64,000 nucleotides of DNA from Chloroflexota bacterium (GTDB taxonomy: Bacteria > Chloroflexota > Dehalococcoidia > SM23-28-2 > RBG-16-64-32), in the NCBI GenBank assembly GCA_022561635.1, contig JADFQV010000001.1, forward strand, positions 7,917-71,916, given 5' to 3'. The notes below the pieces were generated by a model. The model did no database searches, was not told the DNA's origin, and was given only the letters and a program-made list of their open reading frames with translations. Positions 9,863 through 15,466 of this stretch are shown one piece after another; position 1 is the stretch's first letter, and each line of letters starts with the position of its first letter. The position numbers and the translations under genes were made by a program.

Positions 9863-9964
9863 CTCTCATCGAGAGCGGTGGAGGGAACGGCCCTGGGAAG
9901 CCCGGCAACCGGTCTCCGGACACGGTGCCAACTCCGATTCGCCCCCGGGCGAATGAGATGAGAG
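9863..9964 (+). ncRNA. SAM-I (S-box) riboswitch aptamer
   Basis: P1 is CTCTCATC...GATGAGAG. The conserved core is GAGAGCGGTGGAGGGAACGGCCC, then GAAGCCCGGCAACC, then GGTGCCAA, with a P4 hairpin (ATTCGCCC/GGGCGAAT). This is a near-consensus match to the S-box. Confidence 0.8.
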
Positions 9965-9975
9965 TGGAGCATGAG

Positions 9976-10001
9976 ACTTCTCCGCCGCGAGAAGTTTTTT
10001 T
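9976..10001 (+). terminator. Intrinsic terminator forming the riboswitch expression platform (acttctc-cgccgc-gagaagt + T7)
   Basis: A 7-bp stem is followed by TTTTTTT. This is the only clear U-tract terminator in the window. RBS GAGGAG at 10014-10019. Confidence 0.65.
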
Positions 10002-10026
10002 ATACCCGAGAACGAGGAGTAGCGCG

Positions 10027-11088
10027 CTGAAAGACCTGTTCCTGCCCATCGAATGGCTCTCCGCCGGCAAGGTGCGGTTCCTGGACCAGACGCTTCTGCC
10101 GCAGGAAGAGACCTGGGTCGAGACCGCCGACTACCGGGTCGTCGCCGAGGCGATCCGCCGCCTGCAGGTGCGCGGCGCGCCGCTGATCGGCATCGCAGCT
10201 GCCTACGGAGTAGCGCTCGCCGCCCTGGAGAGCGCCGCAACGGACGCCGAAACGCTGCGGCGCGACGTGACCGAGGCGGCAGACGCACTTCGCGCGACGC
10301 GGCCGACCGCCGTCAACCTCTCGTGGGCCCTCGACCGCTGCCTGCGCACGCTTGAGTCCGCCCCGGACGCAGCGGGTGGGCGGGAGACGCTGGTGCGAAC
10401 GGCGCGCAAGATCCACGAACAGGACGTCGCCGCTAACCAGCGCATCGGCGCCTTCGGGGCGGAACTGCTCCCGGCCGGTGCCTCCGTGATGACGCACTGC
10501 AACGCCGGCTCCCTGGCGACCGGGGGCTACGGCACCGCCCTCGGCATCCTGCGCGCCGCCTGGACCGGCGGCCAACTGAGGCACGTCATCGCCACGGAGA
10601 CGCGGCCTCTGCTGCAGGGAGCGCGCCTCACGGCCTGGGAGCTGAAGCACGAAGCGATCCCCTTCACCCTGATCGCCGACAGCGCGGCCGGCTCCGCTCT
10701 GAGACGGGGCCTTGCCAGTGCCGTCGTCGTCGGCGCCGACCGCATCGCGGCCAACGGCGACGTGGCCAACAAGATCGGCACGTACCCGCTGGCGGTGCTG
10801 GCGAAGGAGAACGGCGTTCCCTTCTACGTTGCCGCTCCGACGAGCACTATCGACTTGTCGTTGCCGTCCGGAGACGAGATACCGATCGAAGAGCGCTCCG
10901 CCGACGAGGTGACGGACGTACGCGGCGTCAGGATCGCTCCGACAGACATCGACGCCGCCAACCCCGCCTTCGACGTGACGCCGAACGGATACGTGAGCGC
11001 GATCGTCACCGAGAACGGCGTCGCGCGCCCTCCGTACGAGGAGAGCCTGCGCCGCGCCTGCGAGGCCGGAGTGCCCGCCCGTGGCTGA
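10027..11088 (+). CDS. mtnA: S-methyl-5-thioribose-1-phosphate isomerase (eIF-2B alpha/beta/delta family)
   Basis: Matches the MtnA N-terminal pattern (IEW...LDQ..LP; VRGAPLIGIAAAYGVALAA). The start is uncertain. In-frame CTG 10027 sits 7 nt after GAGGAG, and the next canonical in-frame start is GTG 10072. ORF-track residues upstream of the riboswitch are spurious. Confidence 0.75.
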   Translation: MKDLFLPIEWLSAGKVRFLDQTLLPQEETWVETADYRVVAEAIRRLQVRGAPLIGIAAAYGVALAALESAATDAETLRRDVTEAADALRATRPTAVNLSWALDRCLRTLESAPDAAGGRETLVRTARKIHEQDVAANQRIGAFGAELLPAGASVMTHCNAGSLATGGYGTALGILRAAWTGGQLRHVIATETRPLLQGARLTAWELKHEAIPFTLIADSAAGSALRRGLASAVVVGADRIAANGDVANKIGTYPLAVLAKENGVPFYVAAPTSTIDLSLPSGDEIPIEERSADEVTDVRGVRIAPTDIDAANPAFDVTPNGYVSAIVTENGVARPPYEESLRRACEAGVPARG

Positions 11089-12855: not shown

Positions 12856-13466
12856 CGAAGACCATCGGCATCGTCCTCTTCCCCGACTTCGAAGACCTGG
12901 ACGCCATCGGACCCAAGGAGGTCTTCGGCATGCTGGCCACGAGCTCGAACGGCGAGTGGCAAGTCGCCACCGTCTCGCAGGGCGGCGAACCGGTGCGCTC
13001 CTTCCTCGGCACGACGATCGAAGCAGACCACTCGTTTGGCGACTGCCCACAGCTGGACGTACTCCTGGTACCGGGCGGGCTCGGCACTCGCACTGAAGTG
13101 GACAACGAGGCGATCATCGGCTTCGTGCGCAAGCAGGGCGCTGGCGCAGACTGGATAACGTCCGTCTGCACGGGCGCTTTTCTCTTGCACCGCGCCGGAT
13201 TCCTCGAGGGCAAGCGCGCGACGACGCACTGGGCCGCGGTCGAACTGCTGCGGCAGGAAAGCAACGTTACGGTCGTCGACGACGAGCGCTGGGTGCGAGA
13301 CGGCAACGTGATCACGGCGGCGGGAGTCTCCGCCGGCATCGACATGGCACTGTATCTGGTCGCCGAACTGACGAACAGCGAGACGGCGAAGCGCGTCCAG
13401 CACATGATGGAGTACTATCCCAAGCCCCCGCAGTTCGCCGAAGCGGGCGAGGAGACACCGGTATGA
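12852..13466 (+). CDS. DJ-1/PfpI (class-I glutamine amidotransferase-like) family protein
   Basis: Conserved nucleophile-elbow Cys (ITSVCTGAFLL). ATGA overlap with the upstream gene. Confidence 0.8.
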   Translation: MTKTIGIVLFPDFEDLDAIGPKEVFGMLATSSNGEWQVATVSQGGEPVRSFLGTTIEADHSFGDCPQLDVLLVPGGLGTRTEVDNEAIIGFVRKQGAGADWITSVCTGAFLLHRAGFLEGKRATTHWAAVELLRQESNVTVVDDERWVRDGNVITAAGVSAGIDMALYLVAELTNSETAKRVQHMMEYYPKPPQFAEAGEETPV

Positions 13467-14182
13467 CGTTTTCCATAGTCGCGCGCTGCCCGCGCACCGG
13501 GGCGCTGGGTGTCGCAACCTCAAGCAAGGCGCTATCGGCCGGTGGCGGCGTGCCTCATGGCCGCGCAGGCGTGGGCGCCATCGCCAGCCAGGCCTTCTCG
13601 AACCCCTACCTCGGCATCGACGGCCTCGCTCTGCTGGAGCAGGGTTTGCCGGCCGAGCGTGCCCTGGAGCGCCTGATCGAGAGCGACCGCGGGCGAGACC
13701 TGCGACAGCTGGCGATCGTGGACAAGGACTCACGGGTTGCCGCATACACCGGCGAGCGCTGCATCGACTGGGCCGGACACGTCAGCGGCGGCGGATACGT
13801 CTGCCTCGGCAACATCCTTACCGGCGAGGACGTCGTCAAGGCGATGGCGACGGCGTTCGAGAGAAGCGTCGATGAGGATCTGCCGGAGCGACTGATGCGC
13901 ACCCTGGAGGCCGGGCAGGATGCGGGCGGCGACCGGCGGGGGCGTCAATCGGCCGGCATCCGCGTTGTCCAGACCGAGGAGTATCCGTACTGCGACCTGC
14001 GCGTCGACGACCACCCGGATCCGGTACCTGAACTGCGCAGGGTGCTGGCGATCTGGCAGCGCGACGAACCGCTTCTCCAGGCGGAGCCCCGGAGGGATGA
14101 TTTCACCCCCCACTGGGAAGCGGTCGTGCGAACACGGGACATCATAGAGGAGTCGCTACAGGAAGACGCAGCGGCCAGGTAA
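13463..14182 (+). CDS. DUF1028-family protein (Ntn-hydrolase-like fold)
   Basis: Characteristic N-terminal MTFSIVARC...G.GVA. ATGA overlap with the DJ-1 gene. Confidence 0.65.
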   Translation: MTFSIVARCPRTGALGVATSSKALSAGGGVPHGRAGVGAIASQAFSNPYLGIDGLALLEQGLPAERALERLIESDRGRDLRQLAIVDKDSRVAAYTGERCIDWAGHVSGGGYVCLGNILTGEDVVKAMATAFERSVDEDLPERLMRTLEAGQDAGGDRRGRQSAGIRVVQTEEYPYCDLRVDDHPDPVPELRRVLAIWQRDEPLLQAEPRRDDFTPHWEAVVRTRDIIEESLQEDAAAR

Positions 14183-14191
14183 GAAGGAGAG

Positions 14192-15466
14192 TTGATGGTC
14201 AACCCCACGATAGATCACGACGTTAAGGACCTCGCCCTCGCCGACGAAGGCGTGAGCCGCATCGAGTGGGCCGCGCGCGAGATGCCGGTGATCAAGCTGA
14301 TCCAGGACCAGTTCGAGCGCGAGAAGCCGCTGCGCGGCGTCCGGCTGGCGGCCTGCCTGCACGTGACTACCGAGACCGCGAACCTGATGATCGCGCTGCA
14401 GGCCGGTGGCGCGGAAGTCTTTCTCGCGGCCAGCAACCCGCTCTCGACGCAGGACAGCGTGGCGGCGGCGCTCGTCGCGCGCTACAACATCCCGACGTTC
14501 GCCGTGCGCGGAGAAGACGACCCGCTCTACTACCGCCACCTCCACTCCGTCCTCGACGCCAAGCCGAACATGACGATGGACGACGGCGCGGACCTGGTGG
14601 CGACCCTGCACAAGGAGCGCCGTGATCTCCTCGACGGCATTATCGGCGGCACGGAGGAGACGACGACGGGCGTCATTCGTTTGCGGGCGATGGCCAAGGA
14701 CGGTGCGCTGGCCTATCCGATCGTCGCCGTCAACGAGGCGCAGACGAAGCACCTCTTCGACAACCGTTACGGCACCGGCCAGAGCACGCTCGACGGCATC
14801 ACGCGGGCGACGAACGTCCTCTGGGCGGGCAAGCATGTCGTCATCGCCGGCTACGGCTGGTGCGGCAAGGGTGTAGCGCTGCGGGCGCGCGGCCTCGGCG
14901 CGAAGATAATCGTCACCGAAGTCGACCCGATTCGTGCGCTGGAAGCGACGATGGACGGCCACGAGGTGATGACGATGGACGAGGCGACGCGCCTGGGCGA
15001 TATCTTCATCACCCTCACCGGCGACACGAGCGTCCTCGACCGCCAGCACTTCGAGGCGATGAAGGACGGCGCGATCGTCGCCAACAGCGGCCACTTCAAC
15101 GTCGAGATCAACATCGCCGCGCTGAAGGATATGAGCGAATCGCAGCGCCACGTACGTGACAGCGTCGAAGAGTATCACCTGATGGACGGCCGCAAGATCT
15201 TCCTGCTGGCCGAAGGGCGCCTGATCAACCTCGCCGCGGCGGAAGGCCACCCGGCGAGCGTGATGGACATGAGCTTCGCCAACCAGGCGCTCGCCGCGGA
15301 ACTGATTACACGCTCGCAGGGCAAGCTGGCGATTGAAGTTCACACGGTGCCGCCGGAGATCGACAACGAGATCGCCCGCCTCAAGCTGAAGTCGATGGGC
15401 ATCGAGATCGACGAGCTGACGGAAGAGCAGAAGCGCTACCTGAACAGCTGGGAGATGGGTACCTGA
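14192..15466 (+). CDS. ahcY: Adenosylhomocysteinase
   Basis: SAHH signature and NAD-binding GYGWCGKG. Starts 9 nt after the DUF1028 stop, so it is probably in the same riboswitch-led operon. Confidence 0.9.

Follow-up and report, generated by a model that had tools for sequence, protein, structure and literature searches.

A SAM-I riboswitch-led operon with a probable role in recycling the by-products of S-adenosylmethionine use in a Dehalococcoidia bacterium

A stretch of 64,000 nucleotides from a Chloroflexota bacterium of the class Dehalococcoidia (assembly GCA_022561635.1, contig JADFQV010000001.1, positions 7,917 to 71,916 of the forward strand; referred to below as the 64-kb window, with positions counted from its first letter) was analysed around an operon led by a riboswitch for S-adenosylmethionine (SAM). 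An Rfam search of all 64 kb gave a single riboswitch, a SAM-I aptamer matched over its full length. After the riboswitch and its terminator, the genes follow in the order mtnA-mtnP-GNAT-DJ-1-DUF1028-ahcY. The features are:

9863..9964, plus strand: SAM-I (S-box) riboswitch aptamer (RF00162, 80 bits against a gathering threshold of 44.4, E=3e-17)
9973..10001, plus strand: intrinsic terminator, GAGACUUCUC-CGCCGC-GAGAAGUUUU followed by a U-run (hairpin 9973-9998, dG -11 kcal/mol, z=-3.4)
10027..11088 (start uncertain), plus strand: mtnA, S-methyl-5-thioribose-1-phosphate isomerase (TIGR00512, 437 bits against a cutoff of 279)
11081..11962, plus strand: mtnP, S-methyl-5'-thioadenosine phosphorylase (TIGR01694, 309 bits against a cutoff of 275)
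11959..12855, plus strand: tandem-GNAT N-acyltransferase of GLYAT/FR47-like architecture, 298 aa (PF00583 and PF08445)
12852..13466, plus strand: DJ-1/PfpI protein of the isocyanide-hydratase (ICH/InhA) subfamily, 204 aa (PF01965, 112 bits)
13463..14182, plus strand: DUF1028 protein with Ntn-hydrolase fold and N-terminal Thr, 239 aa (PF06267, 250 bits)
14192..15466, plus strand: ahcY, adenosylhomocysteinase (TIGR00936, 651 bits against a cutoff of 498)

A first-pass annotation, made from the sequence alone, had described this region as a riboswitch-led operon of six translationally coupled genes, and this description was borne out by the RF00162 match, by the equivalog matches and by the gene junctions as read from the sequence. 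ATGA overlaps were present at mtnP/GNAT, GNAT/DJ-1 and DJ-1/DUF1028, and ahcY follows after 9 nt, both as annotated; an AAGGAG ribosome-binding site precedes ahcY. The mtnA/mtnP junction, however, is an 8-nt overlap, GTGGCTGA, and not a 4-nt GTGA overlap. The six genes are coupled, but the run does not stop at ahcY, since a packed series of co-directional genes extends past it through metK and genes for an NTP-transferase, a phosphoglucomutase/phosphomannomutase (PGM/PMM) and a phosphoglucose/phosphomannose isomerase (PGI/PMI), up to a terminator at about 20066-20103. The same DUF1028 protein and an identical gene order were found on several metagenome scaffolds and in the metagenome-assembled genome GCA_022626225.1.

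Related loci were collected by an alignment scan with the GNAT protein, using one genome per GTDB species. This produced 79 loci (31-90% identity), onto which the proteins of the window operon were mapped, and the counts given below are over the loci evaluable for each feature. All relatives found were Chloroflexota, mostly Dehalococcoidia. The GNAT gene was preceded by mtnP in 73/78 and by mtnA in 71/74 loci and was followed by ahcY in 65/67, with a median GNAT-ahcY gap of 36 nt where nothing was inserted; apt, encoding adenine phosphoribosyltransferase, was kept upstream of mtnA in 39 loci. Tepidiforma-type loci, including that of the complete T. flava genome, have a PfkB kinase related to 3KD6 (E=4e-79) between mtnP and GNAT, as in L057 (9051-9965). 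Three Anaerolineales-type loci (L079, L080 and L084) have the order mtnA-adoK-GNAT-ahcY, in which an adenosine kinase of the M. tuberculosis type (E=3e-83; L080, 1522-2475) takes the place of mtnP, and L081 has PfkB-GNAT-ahcY only, with neither mtn gene. Since GNAT is kept with ahcY across these loci, even where mtnP or both mtn genes are missing, ahcY is the invariant partner of GNAT. The genes joining the cluster in other lineages (adenosine kinase, other PfkB kinases and apt) all belong to nucleoside or base salvage. The theme of the cluster is the salvage of SAM by-products, namely adenine, adenosine, methylthioadenosine (MTA) and S-adenosylhomocysteine (SAH).

The other two genes of the window operon have a different distribution. 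DJ-1 was present in 27/75 loci and DUF1028 in 28/75; both occurred together in 22/75, DUF1028 alone in 6 and neither in 40. The two are confined to the subclade nearest the window, within which independent losses of DJ-1/DUF1028 were seen in L020, L027, L035, L036, L038 and L040-44. Copy number also varies: L011 has three tandem DUF1028 paralogs between DJ-1 and ahcY (11499-13630; 47%, 49% and 75% identity to the window protein), and L017 and L032 have two copies each. Of the three proteins without an assigned role to which the first-pass annotation had pointed, GNAT is thus a conserved member of the SAM by-product cluster, but DJ-1 and DUF1028 belong to one subclade only.

Many relatives carry a further short ORF between GNAT and DJ-1 that the window lacks (for example L013, 10891-11190; L017, 10928-11194; L030, 3626-3919; L037, 11025-11315). 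Its conserved product is about 90-110 aa long, contains the motif IDxxVAxEIxRLHKKHPxLGHxGL and had no Pfam match; in the window, the ATGA overlap of GNAT and DJ-1 stands in its place.

The match to the SAM-I aptamer covers RF00162 model positions 1-108, and the terminator hairpin is followed by U7. When the related loci were searched with a model built from eight aptamers, a SAM-I riboswitch was detected directly upstream of mtnA in 31 of them, and in L027 and L042 the riboswitch operon is present with both DJ-1 and DUF1028 missing. A T-run is located 30-40 nt after the aptamer in 30/31 of the related leaders, indicating that termination control is conserved. The riboswitch was not found in L040, L041, L044 or the Tepidiforma and Anaerolineales loci. 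Riboswitch-less lineages often have a MarR-family gene between apt and mtnA (L048, L049, L054, L055, L063, L068, L073 and L074), and in L045 the metK-NTP-transferase-PGM-PGI unit has been relocated and has a SAM-I/IV riboswitch in front of it (16590-17983, minus strand).

Upstream of PIEW, a conserved N-terminal motif, and downstream of the terminator, mtnA has no canonical ATG, GTG or TTG start (window 9958-10072). The likeliest start is a CTG at 10027, situated 7 nt after a GAGGAG ribosome-binding site. Gene callers set the start at ATG 9958 within the P1 helix of the aptamer, which would imply translational control; only about 7/31 leaders have this ATG open and in frame, and it is therefore a gene-caller artefact.

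In Bacillus, the leaders of the S-box regulon upstream of mtnKA/mtnWXBD and metK control methionine salvage and the SAM cycle. The window operon is of this known S-box kind but of unusual composition. As in the Bacillus operons, a SAM-I aptamer and an intrinsic terminator stand directly 5' of methionine-salvage/SAM-cycle genes, and the logic would likewise be attenuation of transcription by SAM. Unlike them, a single leader here serves mtnA-mtnP, ahcY and probably also metK; a conserved tandem GNAT is part of the operon, joined in this lineage by an ICH-like DJ-1 protein and DUF1028, and the downstream salvage genes are not linked.

The GNAT protein was examined by domain search, structure comparison and residue conservation. 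Its AF2 model (pLDDT 88.7) showed two GNAT-like domains; PF00583 scored 42 bits against a cutoff of 20.7, and PF08445 (FR47) was also above cutoff. In Foldseek searches, the best global matches were Drosophila 1SQH (FR47-like) and bovine GLYAT (7PK1), with template modelling (TM) scores of about 0.60 over about 300 aligned columns, and protein-acetylating tandem GNATs such as VipF were among the top fold matches. Compared with these GLYAT/FR47-like two-domain GNATs, the identity is just 11-12%, and the group described here is bacterial and restricted to Chloroflexota. The first-pass annotation had given the protein the tandem-GNAT architecture of MshD. A two-domain tandem-GNAT fold is indeed present, but the MshD model TIGR03448 scored 20.5 bits against a cutoff of 163.1 and matched residues 206-258 only, and about 300 columns aligned to MshD (2C27 and 1OZP) with a TM score of just 0.43-0.45. 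The protein is thus not MshD, the likeness being architectural only.

Conservation was assessed in 61 GNAT orthologs with 31-100% identity. At least 95% conservation was found at 57 positions, many of them in the N-terminal domain. The acetyl-CoA-binding consensus of the superfamily, R/Q-x-x-G-x-G/A, is represented by R213-x-x-G216-x-A218, in which R213 is conserved in 61/61, G216 in 59/61 and A218 in 56/61 orthologs, and Tyr251, the catalytic Tyr of motif B, in 61/61. As judged from these residues, GNAT is a clade-wide acetyl-CoA-dependent N-acyltransferase that is predicted to be catalytically intact.

The DJ-1 protein matched isocyanide hydratase (6NI5/3NON) over its full length with E=2e-46. 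Isocyanide hydratases (ICH) are marked by an elbow in which Thr comes directly after the nucleophile Cys, and by the equivalent of Asp17. Both the Cys-Thr elbow and Asp17 are aligned in the window protein, as in the Pseudomonas enzyme ICH/InhA, and the nucleophile, Cys106 (SVCTG), is invariant in 23/23 orthologs. Retention of this Cys had been noted in the first-pass annotation, which had left the family at hydratase or glyoxalase III type; TIGR01383, the glyoxalase III model, scored 64.2 bits against a cutoff of 131.25, and the predicted type is isocyanide hydratase, not glyoxalase III. Unlike the situation for the Pseudomonas enzyme, an isonitrile context is not evident here, and the DJ-1 gene lies in the SAM operon only in one Dehalococcoidia subclade.

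For DUF1028, the sole solved structure matched by sequence was SPO2555 (2IMH; E=1e-24), a DUF1028 protein of the Ntn-hydrolase superfamily with which the window protein shares PF06267, the fold and the N-terminal Thr. The model of the window protein gave TM scores of 0.71-0.83 to 2IMH, followed by proteasome beta subunits, Anbu and taspase, which are Ntn-hydrolases, and Thr2 was invariant in 28/28 orthologs; the Ntn-hydrolase-like fold assigned earlier therefore holds. The gene context of DUF1028 elsewhere was surveyed in 80 loci, which were retrieved from metagenomes with the distant sequence of 2IMH as the anchor. Seventy-eight of the 80 had no mtnA, mtnP, ahcY, metK, GNAT or DJ-1 neighbour, and the two with SAM-operon context both came from this Dehalococcoidia clade. 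In contrast to the window gene in its SAM operon, the DUF1028 genes elsewhere have heterogeneous neighbours, which are uninformative as a clue to function. DJ-1 and DUF1028 are both predicted to be functional enzymes and are probably later, lineage-specific insertions between GNAT and ahcY; they are not a conserved pathway unit.

The genes and signals on both sides of the operon are as follows:

7995..9197, minus strand: M20 amidohydrolase of the TIGR01891 family, divergent from apt (Pfam M20 and M20_dimer; TIGR01891, 214 bits against a cutoff of 154)
9273..9788, plus strand: apt, adenine phosphoribosyltransferase (NF002636, 230 bits against a cutoff of 125)
9806..9835, plus strand: promoter-like site TTGACA-18-TACCAT (consensus scan, 10/12 matches)
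15482..15505, plus strand: GC-rich hairpin after ahcY, without a U-tail on the plus strand
15590..16792, plus strand: metK, methionine adenosyltransferase, 400 aa (TIGR01034, 552 bits against a cutoff of 309)
16793..20061, plus strand: NTP-transferase (ManC-like), PGM/PMM-family mutase and bifunctional PGI/PMI
20066..20103, plus strand: intrinsic terminator-like hairpin with T-rich tail, between the convergent PGI/PMI gene and rpsI (read from the sequence)

The promoter-like site, with apt directly 5' of it, is unique in 9000-20300, but shuffled sequences average 0.9 such sites and it therefore counts for little. The hairpin at 15482-15505 has an A-rich stretch upstream of it and a T-tail on the minus strand only, on which there is no converging gene; between ahcY and metK it may act as a leaky or partial terminator, or else be a processing or RNA-stability element. 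The metK start was set at the ATG behind an AAGGAGG ribosome-binding site, and the GTG start of the NTP-transferase gene abuts the metK stop codon TAG. The metK-NTP-transferase-PGM/PMM-PGI/PMI series (15590-20061) is kept in the lineages of both the window and L045 and travels as a unit, with sugar-1-phosphate enzymes accompanying metK under putative SAM control.

Three further observations were made elsewhere in the window. At 42492-44467 on the minus strand, an MshA-like family 4 glycosyltransferase (TIGR03449, 394 bits, under the cutoff of 462.5) lies beside a PIG-L/BshB-like deacetylase; the pair, which is 30 kb off and not operon-linked, may belong to a pathway of the GlcN-inositol or low-molecular-weight-thiol type. 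A PfkB protein at 56864-57817 was rejected as an ortholog of the Tepidiforma cluster kinase, as it matched over a partial stretch with E=0.002. In a 456-aa ORF at 54392-55762, an alpha/beta-hydrolase domain and the catalytic domain of an adenylate/guanylate cyclase occur together.

The MtnP and MtnA steps of universal methionine salvage are present (TIGR01694 and TIGR00512, above their cutoffs), leading as far as methylthioribulose 1-phosphate (MTRu-1-P). That no MtnB, MtnC, MtnD, MtnK or shunt aldolase lies here had been stated earlier and is correct: the 64-kb window has no MtnB, no MtnC or MtnW/X and no MtnD, and likewise no class II aldolase, RuBisCO-like protein, acireductone dioxygenase/cupin, enolase-phosphatase or MtnK. 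Unbiased clustering of ORFs within 10 kb in the 79 loci revealed no MtnB, MtnC, MtnD, Ald2 aldolase, RuBisCO-like protein or cupin among the recurrent neighbours. Several recurrent neighbours of initially unknown nature were considered as hidden aldolases or cupins and rejected, since they proved to be a MarR regulator (c23), a luciferase-like monooxygenase (c40), DUF1501 (c22), DUF1800 (c26), an M3 peptidase (c21) and a thiamine pyrophosphate enzyme (c25).

Because MtnP bypasses the MtnK kinase (PMC10986504), the absence of MtnK is expected and uninformative. The dihydroxyacetone phosphate (DHAP) shunt in its MtnP variant consists of MtnP, MtnA and the Ald2 aldolase (PMC10986504). The window operon is like this variant in having MtnP and MtnA adjacent and co-transcribed, which would give MTRu-1-P or 5-deoxyribulose 1-phosphate, and unlike it in that the class II aldolase is not in the window or within 10 kb in the 79 loci. 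The MTA-isoprenoid shunt employs a RuBisCO-like protein and a cupin methylsulfurylase, and neither gene turned up in the window or as a conserved neighbour in the related loci. Most likely, MTRu-1-P is handled by an enzyme encoded elsewhere, for example a class II aldolase of the Ald2/MtnB type, or is dephosphorylated and excreted.

Taken at a probability of about 0.7, the locus is a SAM-responsive operon that recycles the by-products of SAM use in this Dehalococcoidia bacterium. When SAM is abundant, it would bind the SAM-I aptamer, P1 would form, and the terminator hairpin with its U-run would then form and halt transcription before mtnA; when SAM is scarce, read-through would allow the operon to be expressed. 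MtnP would convert MTA and phosphate into adenine and methylthioribose 1-phosphate (MTR-1-P), the adenine being reclaimed by the Apt encoded upstream, and MtnA would convert MTR-1-P into MTRu-1-P. AhcY would split SAH into adenosine and homocysteine, and MetK, probably also expressed, would form SAM from methionine. GNAT would be functionally part of the ahcY/SAM-cycle core rather than of MTRu-1-P processing. As a best guess, the substrate that it N-acylates would be a small amine or an amino acid from the SAM cycle, similar in type to homocysteine or methionine.

Several points weigh against this interpretation. The antiterminator pairing in the leader is weak (z=-0.5). Expression of metK would require read-through from ahcY, past the hairpin without U-tail at 15482-15505. 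No enzyme acting downstream on MTRu-1-P was found, be it in the window or, for the 79 loci, within 10 kb. GNAT has no close characterised homolog, its best PDB sequence match being 3EC4 (E=1e-8), of unknown function. Finally, DJ-1 and DUF1028 are predicted to be co-expressed with the SAM genes in the window lineage because of their ATGA overlaps and the catalytic residues they have kept, and they may have acquired a related role here.

An extended form of the by-product recycling reading would make the GLYAT-like GNAT an unrecognised core enzyme of this process in Dehalococcoidia and Anaerolineae, with a SAM-cycle metabolite such as homocysteine, methionine, SAH or an amine derived from them as the substrate to be N-acylated. 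The ICH-like hydratase, DUF1028 and M20 would, in one subclade, extend it to an acylate-transform-deacylate side branch of sulfur/amine salvage. We regard this extended form as doubtful.

A variant of the N-acylation idea was drawn by analogy with the yxe (scm) system of B. subtilis, in which the GNAT YxeL, the flavin mononucleotide-dependent monooxygenase YxeK and the amidohydrolase YxeP act on S-substituted cysteines (PMC9706529). By this analogy, GNAT would N-acylate homocysteine, methionine or an S-substituted amino acid; the ICH-like hydratase and DUF1028, or in some Tepidiforma-type loci the luciferase-like monooxygenase, would transform the N-acyl intermediate; and the divergent M20 amidohydrolase would strip off the acyl group. 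The GLYAT-like fold is that of an amino-acid N-acyltransferase, and YxeL, YxeK and YxeP set a precedent for a GNAT combined with a monooxygenase and an amidohydrolase; here too, a GNAT accompanies a TIGR01891-family amidohydrolase in a setting of sulfur-metabolite salvage. M20 was present in 23 loci and, in the nearer clade, its conservation upstream of the cluster is shared by PlsX; the luciferase-like monooxygenase occurs in the cluster of 4 Tepidiforma-type loci. However, GNAT here is a two-domain, GLYAT-like protein, and the nearest solved relatives of M20 are HmrA (3RAM) and Xaa-Arg dipeptidase (about E=1e-75), with YxeP not among the matches at E<=1e-20. An identity of M20 with YxeP is not supported, and the analogy is weak because M20 is closer to dipeptidases than to YxeP. 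In addition, M20 is absent from Tepidiforma and Anaerolineales loci that still have GNAT, and the accessory genes are patchy and not co-conserved. This route is considered unlikely.

GNAT might instead be a protein acetyltransferase that acts on lysines or N-termini and tunes AhcY and/or MetK, with DJ-1 and DUF1028 as unrelated hitch-hikers in a strongly expressed operon. Genes for bacterial protein acetyltransferases often adjoin those of their targets, and both the close adjacency of GNAT and ahcY (65/67, median gap 36 nt) and the VipF-like enzymes among the top fold matches are consistent with such a role. On the other side, the highly conserved N-terminal domain with its several invariant Arg, Tyr and His residues would better suit a pocket for small molecules, and GLYAT, to which the overall fold is closest, is a small-molecule enzyme. 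We consider this quite improbable, and N-acylation of a small SAM-cycle metabolite is preferred.

Very improbable, finally, is the proposal of the first-pass annotation that GNAT, DJ-1 and DUF1028 form an undescribed branch converting MTRu-1-P or a derived sulfur/aldehyde product in place of MtnB/C/D or Ald2: the three genes are translationally coupled between mtnA-mtnP and ahcY under one SAM riboswitch, and keep their catalytic residues, and the canonical downstream enzyme was not found in the window or within 10 kb in the 79 relatives, but the three do not make up a pathway unit. The synteny criterion set by the first-pass annotation itself fails for the triad, and the proposal is unsupported, because the three genes do not share the conservation of mtnA and mtnP (DJ-1 and DUF1028 being lost independently while both mtn genes stay), GNAT persists without mtnP or without either mtn gene, DUF1028 elsewhere is almost always outside an MTA/SAM context, and an N-acyltransferase, a Cys hydratase and an Ntn amidohydrolase would be unsuited to the chemistry of a ketose 1-phosphate.

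A literature search on DUF1028, on methionine/MTA metabolism in Tepidiforma/Dehalococcoidia, and on mtnP/mtnA/ahcY together with an acetyltransferase turned up no previous description of the arrangement. An attractive but unsupported pathway proposal is thereby corrected, and the locus shows how SAM by-product recycling is laid out in a large, mostly uncultured lineage comprising Dehalococcoidia, Tepidiformales and Anaerolineae. The conserved core consists of apt, mtnA, mtnP, a nucleoside kinase, ahcY and metK, and its regulation is rewired by lineage, with a SAM-I riboswitch in one clade and MarR plus a separate SAM-I/IV riboswitch on metK in another. The useful lead is not the triad but the single, strongly conserved tandem GNAT tied to ahcY, for which there is no characterised relative; since Tepidiforma is culturable, the question of its role is testable. 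If GNAT does modify a metabolite or an enzyme of the SAM cycle, this would add an extra step to a very central cofactor cycle.

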